Origin: Octopus sinensis
Taxonomy: Eukaryota
Assembly (NCBI RefSeq): GCF_006345805.1
Contig: NW_021825007.1
Coordinates: forward strand, 1-16,939
DNA length: 16,939 nucleotides
Reading direction: 5' to 3'
Numbering within the stretch: position 1 is the first letter of the stretch; each line of letters starts with the position of its first letter. The notes under the pieces were generated by a model, which worked only from the letters and a program-made list of their open reading frames with translations, did not search any database and had not been told where the DNA came from. Positions 4,602 through 14,699 of this stretch are shown in pieces. The position numbers and the translations under genes were made by a program.

Positions 4602-4875
4602 CAGAGGTTCTCAAAGTGAGTGGTTCTCCCTTGAGGGCGGTGGAAAGATCGGAGGGGAGCATTGAAGAAAAGTGGGCGATAATGGGTTGACCAAAAAAAG
4701 GCGATGGATGTAAAAAAACATAATGGGTTGATTAGATTAACTTATATTTGTGAAATACATTTGTTCTGAATTTGCTGCAGAAAGCAGTCTGTGTTTGTGG
4801 CGGTGAGTTAGGGGCGCTAGGAACGTGGCCCGGATACCAGAGAGGCGACAGCCCGAAAAGGTTTAAGAATCAAGT
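4602..4875. mobile_element. hAT/Charlie-like MITE (degenerate)
   Basis: The left end CAGAGGTTCTCAAAGTG matches the Charlie-type TIR CAGTGGTTCTCAA, and the right end AAAAGGTTTAAGAATCAAG is a decayed complement. No intact 8-bp TSD is visible. Confidence 0.55.
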
Positions 4876-10454: not shown

Positions 10455-10668
10455 GTCCCCTGGTCTTGAGCCTACCTATGATCAGAGGCATTCCAGTTAA
10501 TCCCACGCTTCTCTTCTAGTTAAAATCTATCCCAGACTGCATCATCGAATTTGTCCCTTTTTTTCTTTTCTTTTCCTTTTTAGACGATAGGGTGTATTTT
10601 GATGAAGATTTGGCTGCTATTTCTAGCTGGTCAAGTGACCACATAAAGGTCCCTTCGTCTGCTCACCT
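10455..10668 (-). mobile_element. family X (copy 4), best-preserved 5' end
   Basis: The minus strand reads AGGTGAGCAGACGAAGGGACCTTTATGTGGTCACTTGACCAGCTAGAAATAGCAGCCAAATCTTCATCAAAATACACCCT...CTGGAATGCCTCTGATCATAGGT. Confidence 0.8.
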
Positions 10669-11482
10669 TACAGCTTGGTACAACCATAGGTGCTCTACTA
10701 AACCGAGGTACACGATGATGTTATTACTAGTATGATGGTGTTATAACTAGTACGACTGACAACCATGAAAATATTGTTTGTACTAACGAGATACCAACTT
10801 TATTTTGTGAACTTTCATGTCTTCAAATTCATTTCTTAGAATAGATTGTTCTTCGTGGTCTTCGACTAACGGATCCTCTTCCATTTTCAAAGAATATTTT
10901 TAGTACTTCCTACTAACCGACATTTTGTCTTTGTTGGGTTTTATAATCGTGCACCTTAATCTATATTTCCAATGAAATATAGTTATAAATAATATCAACA
11001 TCAGTTTTTTTATAAAAAAAAATCGATTGAAAATGTTTTATACTCTTCCATTTTTCTGTCGCCTTCGATCTTCGATCTCTTAAGATTTTAGTATTAGTAT
11101 TACAAACGTCATCCTTAACCTCTCCTCCATTGTTCTTCAGTCGTTGTTTTTTCCCCCTCTCCTTCTTACATCTGAGATATAACTTATCTTTATATTATAC
11201 CTTTATACGGTTATCAATGTTTATCATTTCGTTTCTTTCCATTTTTTTGTATTACTTCGTCGTACTGATGTATTTATCTCTAATATAACTATTTTTAGCT
11301 TTCCTTTTTCATTGGCATTCGTTCAAACATATATTCGTGTCTCTTGTTCTTTCAGTCCAAATTATATTTACTCTAAAGCATTATTATTATTTTTTTCTCC
11401 AATGCATATTTCTCTTATGCTTCCTTGTTTAAAAGTCCATAAATATTGAGGTATTTGTAGTGTTAAGACCTTAATGTTGTGA

Positions 11483-11483
<1 letters not shown>

Positions 11484-11556
<73 letters not shown>

Positions 11557-11570
11557 ATGCATGTGTGTGT
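11484..11570. repeat. (TG)n microsatellite in the putative 3' UTR of the minus-strand gene
   Basis: Directly visible. Confidence 0.95.
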
Positions 11571-11673
11571 ACGTGAAGAAGTGTAGTTTTTACAAGTTGT
11601 GTGAGCCATGCTTTGCTGTCGTGTATTGTAGCTATTGCTGTGTTGGAATACAATTCATAAATAATGTTTTATA

Positions 11674-12801
11674 CTACACCTCTTCTAGATCTATCTCTTC
11701 AAAGTCTCTGAAATCGTCAGGCCATGGAACAGAAGATACACCTGTAGGAGAGTTGTTCAATTCTTTCACTTTGTGTTTTTTGCCCTTCTCCGGATTTCCT
11801 TTACCCATGCTCGGAACACCGTCCGGCTCTTGCGATCCACGACGCTCCAGAGAAGAACATTTTCCCTCAGTTGAATTATCGATGTCCCTGGTTGAGCAGC
11901 CTTTACGTGAATCATGGAAGGCTTTAAAACAGACTGCTTTACAAATGTCTGGACAGGGTGATACAGAAATTAATTTTACATTCCCATGACCAACATTTTT
12001 TACACCTGGACCCAAAATGTATTTTAAATTTTTCAACGAAAGATATTCCCCTTCTTCTTGGTCAGATGCTTGTTCTACAGTATGATAGGATTCACTTTTG
12101 TTGCTATCCGTGCCTGAGTCAACATAGCTACCTAGGTCTGAATCATAAGACAACTTTGAACTATGCATTGGTTCTGCTGTATAAAAGGAATCAGAATCGG
12201 AGGCAATTTCGTCATCAAGTTCTTGAACATTAGTTTGATCGTGGAAATCGTAGAGTGATTGGAGGTTAGTAGTTTTTGCTGAAGCGCTTCTAACCATTAT
12301 GTCATGAACAAGCTTAGGTTCATAGATATCATCTTCGAGGCAGAAAGAAACAGTTTTGGCTCTAACAATAGGAGTGGAATCTTCATTTGAATCGAGAATA
12401 ACCTTTGATTCAATGATGTCTTCCTCTGGACGGAAGACAACAGATTTAGATTTTAAGTCAGGAGAGTTTGTTGCGATTAAATAAGAAGCGGAGCTTGATC
12501 TGTATGAGGATTCTTGCAATGGAGTTGAACCAGATTTTGTGTTCAAATCATTGGTGCAGACATTTGAATTTGGAACAACTTGTTGAGAGACGTTTATTTT
12601 GCGTGGTAAGAAATCGGTTTGCGTACATGAGTCCACAGTGGGCATTTGACCGAGGCAAGGAATAATTTCTTCCACAGACGCATCATTTCTTGAGATGCAA
12701 CAGCAGAAGAAAAAATTCATGAAACAATGGCCGATCCTCGAGAAAAGGTCCATCAGATAATCTCTCAAGTTGAGATTTTCGTCCGGAGGCTTTTCGAGCA
12801 T
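11674..12801 (-). CDS. uncharacterised Ser/Asp/Glu-rich, probably disordered protein, 375 aa, single coding exon
   Basis: This is a 1128-nt open frame of non-repetitive sequence in AT-rich DNA. The first ATG is at 12801 with A at -3 (the track starts 6 codons earlier at a GTG). There are in-frame stops upstream at about 12832-12837, and the stop is TAG at 11674-11676. I see no transposon motifs and no recognisable domain. Confidence 0.75.
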   Translation of the reverse strand: MLEKPPDENLNLRDYLMDLFSRIGHCFMNFFFCCCISRNDASVEEIIPCLGQMPTVDSCTQTDFLPRKINVSQQVVPNSNVCTNDLNTKSGSTPLQESSYRSSSASYLIATNSPDLKSKSVVFRPEEDIIESKVILDSNEDSTPIVRAKTVSFCLEDDIYEPKLVHDIMVRSASAKTTNLQSLYDFHDQTNVQELDDEIASDSDSFYTAEPMHSSKLSYDSDLGSYVDSGTDSNKSESYHTVEQASDQEEGEYLSLKNLKYILGPGVKNVGHGNVKLISVSPCPDICKAVCFKAFHDSRKGCSTRDIDNSTEGKCSSLERRGSQEPDGVPSMGKGNPEKGKKHKVKELNNSPTGVSSVPWPDDFRDFEEIDLEEV

Positions 12802-13002
12802 TTTCAAAAGAAAATCCACGCACGGACGAAATTATCAAGGATACAATCAGTAAAACTGATCAAGTAGAAAAAGCATCGATTAATTCATCTACAAAGGTTA
12901 TCAAATGAACTGTTTCGAAACCTGAAATTTATGAATATAAAATATCAACCAGAATTCGCTTTGGAACGTCAATTCGAAATGTGAATGAACTGAAGTTTGA
13001 GG

Positions 13003-13060
13003 TTATATCTCAAGCCAGACCCATCGCTACGTCATGTTGCACTTGTTGATTATGACGTAG
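13003..13060 (-). promoter_or_regulatory. candidate promoter: inverted pair of CRE-like sites plus TATA-like element
   Basis: CTACGTCAT (13027-13035) and ATGACGTAG (13052-13060) are exact reverse complements, each containing TGACG. A minus-strand TATAA lies at 13007-13003, about 200 nt upstream of the ATG. Confidence 0.35.
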
Positions 13061-13509
13061 TACACACTGAAACTTTAAACACCTCCTTGTCGCATCAAGG
13101 CTACAGATTTACACAGAAACAAACGCTTTTATCACCTTTATTCGATCGGGTGACTTGACTTGCCTACCGACATGTAACTCCTCCACGCCACATGTTCCCG
13201 ATCGAGCGATACGGCATGAACGTCTGGTTGGAGTTTTAGTCACGCTGGTCTTTTTTCATATAAAAGGAAATACCTCACCTGCACGTACCACAAAAAAACG
13301 GACGATAGCCATAGCTTGCTAAGAGAACCTGGCCGTGGACGATTTGTTGTCTGTTCAAACGCTCAGCATCCACAGGTAATTCGTCATTGATTCCAATAAG
13401 CTCATCCGCTGAAATAGTTCGCATCCACCGTGCTGCATCCTTTGAGTTCAACGTACCCTGGTTTGGGTGGTTACATACTAATTAACACATAACTGGCACC
13501 CTGACAGGC

Positions 13510-13510
<1 letters not shown>

Positions 13511-13598
<88 letters not shown>

Positions 13599-13632
13599 CA
13601 GCAGCAGTAGTAGTAGTAGCAGCAGCAGCAAC
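13511..13632. repeat. (AGT)n/(AGC)n trinucleotide repeat
   Basis: Directly visible. Confidence 0.95.
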
Positions 13633-13818: not shown

Positions 13819-14015
13819 GTGATGGCACGTGGCCTGGTGGTTAGAGTGTTGCGCTCACGAACGCGACATCGTGGTTTCAACACCTAGACCGGGTAGTGCG
13901 TTGTTTTTCTTGCGCAAAACACTTCATCTCACGTTTCTCTGCGATCACTTCGACACCTGAGGCGTGGAAAACTTGTGCACCTGTTCAGGTAACGACGTCG
14001 ATTGGATGGAGGGAG
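13819..14015 (+). mobile_element. tRNA-derived CORE-like SINE
   Basis: It has A box TGGCCTGGTGG, a decayed B box GGTTTCAACACC, then CTTGCGCAAAACACTTCATCTC (CORE-like). The head is homologous to 1-113. Confidence 0.75.
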
Positions 14016-14676
14016 TGATGTATATTTTTATCAAACATTTTATAGCCATGTTGTATATCATCGAGCAACTTCGAGAGAGTTATTAAAGCTAAACAAAAGA
14101 GGAGTGGTGATTGAGGGTCAGCCTGGAAAATACCACAGGAAATTTTTACATCTCCAGCATTGAGAGATTCATTGTCACTCTTCAAAGTCAGTGTGTTTCT
14201 CCATGATCTCATACTTACAGGCAAAAAGTTTCGCAGAGTAGACGCTATTTTATACATTTCCATACATTTTTTAATCCAGCTATGTGGTAGACTATCAAAA
14301 GCCTTTTTATAGTCTATCCAGGCTATCGACATGTTTTGTGTCGTTTGTGACAATCTTCTGGGATCATCTTAATAATGAGTAGCTGATCTTTTACAACCAT
14401 AAGACCCACGTTTACAACCTTTTTGCTCATTAGGGAATATGCCACTTTCTATTAAAAAAACTATATATTCACTCGAAACAGATGATAGTATTTTATATAT
14501 TGTTGTTAAGCAGGTGATGGGTCTATAATTTTTTGGTTCATTTGTTTCTTCATTTTTTAGAAGTAGTAATGTAACACCATTAACTAACCAAGAGGGAATC
14601 ATACTAGGTTGTTGCAAAACATTGTTGTAAAGTTTTGTTAGCAGTCCATGGCTCTTTGGGAAGGTATTCAACCATC
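14014..14676 (-). mobile_element. R4/Dong-clade non-LTR retrotransposon reverse transcriptase fragment (pseudogene)
   Basis: Translation gives PKNYRPITCLTTIYK...EQKGCKRGSYGCK/DQLLI (after frameshift)...AWIDYKKAFDSLPHSWI...GIFQADPQSPLLFCLAL...GY. There are compensating +1/-1 frameshifts near 14390-14335, and the fragment ends just before the YMDD motif. Confidence 0.9.
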
Positions 14677-14699
14677 GGCCTCAATGTTCAGCCGATGTG

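Follow-up and report, generated by a model that had tools for sequence, protein, structure and literature searches.

An intact Octopus-only orphan gene that may encode a disordered, membrane-anchored hub of short docking motifs

The stretch of DNA analysed here, referred to below as the window, is one entire unplaced contig of the Octopus sinensis genome (C1478; NCBI RefSeq NW_021825007.1; 16,939 bases) from an assembly of 2.72 Gb and 13,516 contigs, and it carries on its minus strand a gene that NCBI labels 'uncharacterized protein LOC118760912 [Octopus sinensis]'. Confined to Octopus and a real orphan, this gene is intact and likely transcribed mainly without splicing. The reading of its product that we prefer, tentatively and from the sequence, is a disordered protein, probably anchored to membranes through lipids, that serves as a hub of short docking motifs. 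No known family includes it; if it works as proposed, it would do so in the manner of membrane-anchored motif hubs already known. Disordered proteins restricted to one taxon are nothing unusual. Three Octopus genomes already carry the gene in their annotation, as an uncharacterised protein; what is new is a ranked map of its motifs.

A coding gene confined to Octopus

The longest open reading frame (ORF) of the window occupies 11674..12831 on the minus strand (385 codons), against a longest frame of 178 codons (mean 115) in 300 mononucleotide shuffles of the window. An earlier note on this DNA, made from the letters alone, had placed a single-exon gene at 11674..12801 and numbered its product from a 381-residue translation. 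The ORF is present as it was placed, and every motif string that the note named lies at its position in the 381-residue numbering on the minus strand (CFMNFFFCCC 32-41, TQT 66-68, SFYTAEP 211-217, RRGS 326 and the C-terminal DDFRDFEEIDLEEV; for the RVxF strings, KSVVF 125, KTVSF 155 and KAVCF 294). That numbering, on the other hand, begins at an upstream GTG (12819) that the orthologues do not use. Because both full-length orthologues open with MLEKPP, matching the Met at 12801, we take as the true start the ATG at 12801, for a product of 375 residues. Residue numbers below count from this Met, and invariant columns are those identical across three orthologues. The features of the coding sequence are as follows.

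11674..12801, minus strand: coding sequence of the unspliced isoform (P0001), 375 codons and a TAG stop, ending ...EEIDLEEV
12649..12774, minus strand: residues 10-51, an amphipathic helix, CFMNFFFCCC (12697-12726) and SVEEIIPCL; predicted membrane anchor (conservation; AlphaFold2 helix 12-37)
12610..12633, minus strand: residues 57-64, DSCTQTDF, candidate LC8/DYNLL beta-strand motif (conservation; flank rules)
12433..12447, minus strand: residues 119-123, KSVVF, RVxF match in the first unit of a 30-residue internal repeat; 2 of 5 columns invariant
12343..12357, minus strand: residues 149-153, KTVSF, the sole RVxF match kept in place (KSVSF and KSVTF in orthologues)
12070..12201, minus strand: residues 201-244, acidic and Ser-rich, SDSDSFYTAEP...SYDSDLGSYVDSGTDS..SESYHTVEQ, with FYTA, DSGxxS and a second site, YHTV (conservation; AlphaFold2 hairpin)
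11926..11940, minus strand: residues 288-292, KAVCF, RVxF match, not conserved (lost in P0003 and P0004; 1 of 5 columns invariant)
11833..11844, minus strand: residues 320-323, RRGS, match of protein kinase A (PKA) type, not conserved (QRGS in P0003, QCGS in P0004; 2 of 4 columns invariant)
11677..11733, minus strand: residues 357-375, SVPWPDDFRDFEEIDLEEV, acidic-aromatic C-terminal block with DFEEI, which resembles an LC3-interacting region (LIR); residues 357-370 93 % invariant

Orthologues were found in O. vulgaris (99 % identity; a 323-aa model that is truncated N-terminally), in O. bimaculoides (P0003; 79 % identity, 381 aa) and, as a Logan sequence, in a third octopod (P0004; 63 % identity, 397 aa). 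A second group of hits consists of paralogues, proteins of 152-180 aa. In O. sinensis this group is represented by an intronless gene for a 179-aa protein (P0005) on another chromosome (C25, L002:1474-2013), which has N-terminal and central blocks in common with the 375-aa protein; long and short paralogues are 38-44 % identical, in the aligned blocks only. A truncated copy (L002:402-503; G000:C25:22320507-22320608) of the EEIVPCL...SCTQT stretch, 65 % identical over 36 residues and with stops around it, lies roughly 1 kb upstream of the intact short paralogue and looks like the relic of a tandem duplication.

The earlier note's view of the gene as lineage-restricted is borne out. A word-seeded search of 5.8 billion proteins returned 3 hits with the single protein and 5 with a profile, a HMMER profile scan of 1.84 billion representatives returned 4, and every hit is an octopus or Logan sequence that falls into one of the two groups above. 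No relative outside Octopus appeared in these two collections or in Pfam, PDB and the ESM Atlas: Pfam matched no family in either the protein or the paralogue, the PDB profile search gave no hit, and the ESM Atlas gave no usable one. None of 7545 candidates for longer relatives (696-2000 aa) scored, and a literature search under the UniProt accession A0A0L8GX42 alone found no paper.

Could the ORF be something other than a functional protein-coding gene, either a chance frame in a non-coding RNA or a frame derived from a transposon or virus? The absence of homologues outside one genus and of a fold would suit such an origin, as would an RVT_1 remnant 1.2 kb upstream and a contig rich in microsatellites. 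However, orthologues at 99, 79 and 63 % amino-acid identity keep the frame open across about 375 codons, with indels that are all in-frame, which argues for coding constraint, and the 2.7-Gb genome holds just two loci and one fragment for the whole family, which argues against a dispersed element. The earlier note had named a disrupted frame in close relatives and a transposon or viral match as grounds for giving up the gene; all four octopus sequences, those of O. sinensis, O. vulgaris, O. bimaculoides and the third octopod, have the frame intact, and no viral or transposon protein is among the hits of three large searches. We therefore give this explanation hardly any credence.

Transcription and splicing

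Contigs from three runs of one study (X10, X11 and X12; 62-69 Mb of contigs each) were compared with the window. In each run a single contig spans the ORF from 11571 to 12946, 13017 or 13027 with 0-1 differences from the window, and neighbouring contigs differ 2- to 10-fold in depth. Each run also has a plus-strand contig that starts at 13102-13120, matches as far as 13375 exactly, beyond which it has 53-590 more letters that do not resemble the window; at 13375/13376 the window reads CAG/GTAAT, a splice donor. From the whole ORF lying in single contigs, the differences in depth and the loss of match exactly at a donor, we infer that the three runs are RNA.

The gene is likely transcribed, and mainly without splicing. 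No splice joint touches the ORF in the three runs and the contigs pass unspliced through the stop codon, in agreement with the single coding exon proposed in the earlier note; the expression that it asked for is seen as RNA-like contigs over the whole ORF, in runs whose RNA nature is deduced rather than recorded. The transcript of the third octopod also appears to be unspliced at the stop, since its contig-derived protein (P0004) reads into the homologous downstream stretch. The following features flank the coding sequence.

10584..11673, minus strand: downstream transcribed stretch, likely the 3' untranslated region of the unspliced mRNA (contigs at 10584-11473 and from 11571)
12802..13027, minus strand: upstream transcribed leader, bounded by contig ends at 12946, 13017 and 13027, which are not proof of a transcript start
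4817..4854, minus strand: a second coding exon according to NCBI model P0012, (G)AVASLVSGPRS*; for this genome a doubtful one

Positions 13028-13101 have no cover in the three runs. Within the leader, the block 12903-12986 is 79 % identical to the upstream region of the paralogue.

Two NCBI models, P0012 (386 aa) and P0011 (391 aa), exchange the last residue of the protein for (G)AVASL(V/I)(S/P)GPRS. Among 1800 combinations of exon ends a single one reproduces P0012, with exon 1 ending at 11679 and exon 2 starting at 4854, and because its intron would have the ends TG...TC the spliced form is doubtful here. The sequence ahead of the putative exon reads ...CCTTTTCGG, without an AG; either this genome may have lost the acceptor, or the model may stem from propagation by homology. 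If the joint from 11679 to 4854 were to dominate, the C-terminus would be ...EEGAVASLVSGPRS and the EEV end of the unspliced product would be irrelevant.

On the plus strand there are T>C differences (A>G in the sense of the mRNA) at two positions, 12044 and 12178, each in one of the three RNA-like runs. The former changes Tyr253 to Cys, the residue also found in O. vulgaris, O. bimaculoides and the third octopod, and the latter leaves Thr208 unchanged; alleles or A-to-I editing could account for them.

Disorder and conserved islands

The protein is acidic (net charge -24), contains 50 Ser and is predicted to be largely disordered, as the earlier note had it. AlphaFold2, run on a five-row alignment, gave a mean predicted local distance difference test score (pLDDT) of 35 and a predicted template modelling score of 0.15, with 348 of the 375 residues below 50. 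It places weak helices at residues 12-37, 43-51, 256-263 and 284-300. The hairpin that it predicts at 217-228 is the sole stretch with a pLDDT near 59. The prediction of disorder is also backed by the composition of the protein and by its pattern of conservation, which agree with it.

In the alignment of the three orthologues, 218 of the 375 columns (58 %) are invariant. Standing well above this background are the Cys cluster, DSCTQTDF, SFYTAEP, DSGTDS, SYHTVEQ and the C-terminal PWPDDFRDFEEIDL block; at or below it are KSVVF, KAVCF and RRGS, and the KTVSF site keeps its K, V and F in all three. The expectation that the listed motifs would be conserved islands therefore held for the Cys cluster, TQT, SFYTAEP and the C-terminal block and failed for KSVVF, KAVCF, RRGS and the exact C-terminus. 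Four islands are common to the paralogues as well: CF..F.CCCIS.N..S.EEIIPCL, [DE]SCTQT, DS[FY].TA and DSD.GSY.DSG[TV][DE][ST]. Since these survive between proteins at 38-44 % identity, they, and not the RVxF, RRxS or PDZ-like elements, are likely to be the functional core.

The earlier note had located the signal in the co-occurrence of many motifs. In 5000 shuffles of the protein, the probability of finding at least the observed number was 0.025 for TQT, 0.007-0.02 for three RVxF matches, 0.075 for RRxS, 0.0008 for two F/Y-F/Y/H-S/T-A/V sites and 0.23 for LIR-like sites, values calculated post hoc, with no correction for the hundreds of motif classes that could be sought. Once so many classes are considered the co-occurrence by itself is not significant, and conservation is therefore the usable signal.

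A putative membrane anchor

The N-terminal island is the most strongly conserved: residues 23-51 are 97 % invariant in the three orthologues, the Cys cluster in all 10 of its columns, and CCC and EEIIPCL are unchanged in all six family members. The helical moment peaks over residues 10-31 (up to 1.86, at residues 14-31), and this amphipathic stretch leads into about 14 consecutive apolar residues with three consecutive Cys. The cluster thus adjoins a hydrophobic and amphipathic segment in which no transmembrane (TM) helix is predicted, as is typical of an S-acylated anchor and in line with the palmitoylation consensus. On balance we take the N-terminus to be a lipid anchor, in which the amphipathic helix and the CF..F.CCC cluster would attach the protein to a membrane, probably by S-acylation. 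It resembles the Cys-cluster anchors of the GAP-43 and SNAP-25 type in having a run of three Cys beside aromatic and hydrophobic residues, after an amphipathic helix and without a TM segment, but the octopus cluster lies 33 residues from the N-terminus and has no sequence relation to those proteins.

An alternative is that the Cys-rich segment is a membrane-inserted hairpin or signal anchor, or a metal or redox cluster formed by His25, Cys26, Cys33-35 and Cys49. All of these residues are invariant in the orthologues, Cys33-35 and Cys49 are so in all six family members, and residues 19-37 are the most hydrophobic stretch of the protein. However, the 19-residue Kyte-Doolittle maximum of 1.34 falls short of the 1.6 usual for a TM helix and the apolar run is only about 14 residues long; for the metal or redox version, Cys26 is replaced by Trp in one paralogue and neither Pfam nor PDB gave a match to a metal-binding family. 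We regard this alternative as quite improbable.

A candidate LC8 site

The second shared island would be a docking site for the dimeric hub LC8 (DYNLL). The TQT at residues 60-62, in a stretch with a pLDDT of about 29-34, is kept in all three orthologues, in two of the three paralogue sequences and in the fragment copy, and DSCTQTDF is invariant in 6 of 8 columns. Judged by eye, the flanks of V-D-S-C-T-Q-T-D carry D/E at -4 and D at +2, with a small residue at -2 and without Pro from -5 to -2. According to PMC6607443, the positional rules for LC8 clients are a hydrogen-bonding residue at -4, P, D or E at +2, no Pro ahead of the anchor and no bulky hydrophobic residue at -2, and the flanks of DSCTQTDF agree with them. 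The genome also has a single-exon gene (L003:1489-1755) for a canonical LC8 of 89 aa. It is plausible, at about an even chance, that the (D/E)S(C/S)TQT strand docks in the groove of the LC8 dimer, which would pair two chains of the octopus protein.

Known LC8 clients with a TQT anchor, such as BCL2L11/Bim, described as a strong binder in PMC6607443, have the motif in a comparable setting: in the octopus protein too it lies in a predicted disordered stretch with permissive flanks and is kept in orthologues and most paralogues. The octopus protein, however, has no sequence homology to any known client, carries Ser rather than the preferred large basic residue at -3, and has one site and hence no multivalency.

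Dynein_light (PF01221) matches above the cut-off number 22 in the genome; 17 of them lack an internal stop, and five share a pattern of four stops. Several (L003-L008) are full-length within a single exon, a tandem pair on C8459 among them, and the octopus LC8 family looks expanded or retro-copied.

The acidic serine-rich block

Residues 201-244 align with the paralogue at 44 % identity, and within them residues 201-226 are 88 % invariant in the orthologues (SFYTAEP in 7 of 7 columns, DSGTDS in 5 of 6 and SYHTVEQ in 6 of 7). The first motif, which the earlier note had listed as a phospho-FFAT (a pair of phenylalanines set within an acidic tract), reads S-F-Y-T-A-E-P behind ELDDEIASDSD. According to PMC7705450, the conventional core is E1F2F3D4A5x6E7, phospho-FFATs carry S or T at position 4, and most of those tested belong to membrane-anchored proteins. 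The octopus sequence fits this core at F2, Y3, T4 and A5 and deviates at positions 1 and 7.

Seventeen residues beyond SFYTAEP lies a site that the earlier note did not list, DSGxxS, which is the consensus of beta-TrCP-type degrons. It reads DSGTDS, DSGTDS and DSGTES in the three orthologues and DSGVET in both full-length paralogues. The block SDSDSFYTAEP...DSDLGSYVDSGTDS may thus be a phosphorylation-controlled module: a phospho-FFAT site for VAP, a beta-TrCP degron, or both. Each is a possibility that we hold as doubtful, VAP binding through the FYTA core no less than the degron. Like substrates of SCF-beta-TrCP, the octopus protein has its DSGxxS in a Ser/Asp-rich stretch suited to priming phosphorylation, a likeness of pattern only. 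With the phospho-FFAT partners of VAP and MOSPD2 (STARD3, MIGA2, PTPIP51 and Kv2.1/2.2, as named in PMC7705450) it shares a single F-Y-[S/T] core, Ala at 5, an acidic Ser-rich tract before the core and a separate predicted membrane anchor; it differs from them in having no TM helix and no lipid-transfer or channel domain, in its Pro at 7 and in the weaker forms of its paralogues.

The O. bimaculoides paralogue model P0007 (152 aa) diverges after '...SD', at the point where the O. sinensis paralogue reads GAT/GTAAGT (L002:1750-1760), and the short paralogue may have a spliced isoform that drops the FFAT-like and DSG block.

Phosphatase, kinase and C-terminal motifs

The earlier note had envisaged a palmitoylated, LC8-dimerised subunit that targets PP1 at endoplasmic reticulum (ER) contact sites via VAP, with further inputs from PKA, ATG8 and PDZ proteins. 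Such a protein would dock PP1 through the RVxF pattern, [RK]-x(0,1)-[VI]-{P}-[FW], and three matches are present in O. sinensis and three in O. bimaculoides. A K[TS]V[ST]F is kept in place in all three orthologues and is followed by acidic residues, as in many PP1 interactors, and the Cys cluster, TQT and FYTA are conserved. However, the third orthologue retains one match and the three paralogue sequences none, and the pattern is loose enough for 0.34-0.56 matches to be expected in this protein by chance. KSVVF is KNVYF in O. bimaculoides and KSDFF, which is no match, in P0004; its repeat unit (residues 119-137) shares 9 of 19 residues with the one that holds KTVSF (149-167). KAVCF is lost in both of the more distant orthologues, and at the position of KTVSF the paralogues have EIVSF and ETVSF, without the basic residue. 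One of three sites is kept in position among the orthologues and none in the paralogues, and PP1 targeting, which was central to that model, is a weak claim. Docking of PP1 is unlikely, and the PP1-centred model is the least supported part of the earlier proposal.

Disordered PP1 interactors with an RVxF resemble the octopus protein in their disorder, in a K-x-V-x-F followed by acidic residues and in the one match that is kept in place. The differences are that two of the three octopus matches turn over between species, that the paralogues have none, that Pfam shows no homology to PPP1R families and that no second PP1 motif (phi-phi, SILK or MyPhoNE) was recognised. A reading of K-x-V-x-F-x-x-E-[DE]-D as like PPP1R15/GADD34 was dropped, there being no family hit and no downstream motif.

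The PKA site proposed in the earlier note is not retained, RRGS having given way to QRGS in one of the more distant orthologues and to QCGS in the other. Nor does the C-terminal EEV, put forward as a possible PDZ ligand, form a fixed end: P0003 keeps it as EEEV, the stop is replaced in P0004, where the frame runs on for 26 residues, and NCBI models P0012 and P0011 replace it. A function through PKA or PDZ proteins is very unlikely. The C-terminal block itself is invariant in 12 of 14 columns, and its DFEEI, which fits the LIR consensus as an acidic [WFY]-x-x-[LIV], is found in all three orthologues; LIR-like matches are common, though, numbering 4 against 2.3 expected. An adaptor-ear motif and an acidic activation motif were considered for this block as well. 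The K[TS]V[ST]F site and the C-terminal PWPDDFRDFEEIDL would recruit further partners, for which PP1 and ATG8 are candidates, each improbable on its own and ATG8 docking somewhat more so than PP1 docking. The full model of the earlier note depends on five or more proposed interactions holding together, and with KAVCF and RRGS unconserved and the C-terminal end not fixed we consider it highly improbable.

Weighing the motif reading

The explanation that competes most directly with a docking hub is that the orphan is real but its motifs are coincidental, so that the protein is no client of LC8, VAP, PP1 or beta-TrCP and its islands serve other, possibly octopus-specific, partners or a domain that folds upon binding. 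Each motif is only 3-7 residues long and was found post hoc, with uncorrected shuffle probabilities of 0.007-0.08; four of the ten strings listed in the earlier note are not conserved; and other blocks are conserved equally well and fit no motif that can be named, for example EEIIPCL and ILGP.VK.VGHG.V.LISV.PCPDIC. Against coincidence, the exact residues of TQT, FY-T-A and DSG..[ST] survive between paralogues at about 38-44 % identity, and the flanks of the LC8 site agree with the positional rules of PMC6607443. We think this explanation a serious contender, if a little less probable than the docking hub.

Several points weigh against the hub and the supports on which it stands. The conserved islands rest on three divergent orthologues only, and a shallow alignment by itself lowers pLDDT. 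Many TQT-bearing peptides fail to bind LC8, as PMC6607443 reports, and the O. bimaculoides paralogue model P0007 has AQT in place of TQT. The FFAT-like core has S at position 1 and P rather than E at position 7, and the paralogues carry YHTA (SYHTA) and FCTA (SFCTA) instead of FYTA. The three runs behind the transcription argument are recorded as kind '?', with no RNA label on the record, so their RNA nature is itself a deduction.

If the preferred reading of a disordered docking hub holds, a genus-restricted gene would have been assembled almost wholly from docking motifs for the universal and ancient hubs LC8, VAP and beta-TrCP, and possibly PP1. A test is available within the family itself: four islands are common to its long and short paralogues, which tells which motifs came first. 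A more specific version is that the long and short paralogues are a family of lipid-anchored disordered tethers invented in octopuses, which combine dimerisation by LC8 with a phospho-switched FFAT for VAP and an adjacent beta-TrCP degron, the long member adding docking sites for PP1 and ATG8. This version, put together from motif matches, is a long shot; if it were true, it would describe a lineage-born, self-destructing tether of membrane contact sites without a counterpart in other animals. The motif map is ranked, testable and unusually clean, and PP1, PKA and PDZ are the weakest parts of the earlier proposal. The gene bears on no long-standing open question, orphan disordered proteins being common.

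Other features of the window

Many microsatellites are present on the contig. A (TG)n array of 43.5 copies at 11484-11570 lies 3' of the stop codon and is flanked by RNA-like contigs, and an (AGT)n array of 36.7 copies at 13510-13619 lies upstream of the gene. The RVT_1 remnant is a decayed reverse-transcriptase sequence at 13985-14680 on the minus strand, in two adjacent open frames, one of which matches the Pfam family with an E value of 9.8e-7 and 29.1 bits, just below the cut-off of 29.6. A search of the window against Rfam gave no matches. The segment 10590-10650 is a short dispersed repeat, to which many unrelated RNA-like contigs match over about 40 bases at about 90 % before diverging.

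The plus-strand contigs mark out an exon-like stretch at 13102-13375, with its donor at 13376, that diverges from the gene and begins about 80-100 bases from the ends of the gene's contigs; no long ORF was seen in it. Together with the contigs of the gene, this divergent exon suggests a bidirectional promoter. One further feature lies between the two divergent transcribed stretches.

13027..13060, no strand: perfect 9-nt inverted repeat, CTACGTCAT / ATGACGTAG, with two TGACGT

We take this TGACGT pair to resemble half sites of the cAMP response element. A further TTGACGT occurs within the upstream block 12903-12986, and the sequence aligned with it in the upstream region of the paralogue is TACGTCAC.

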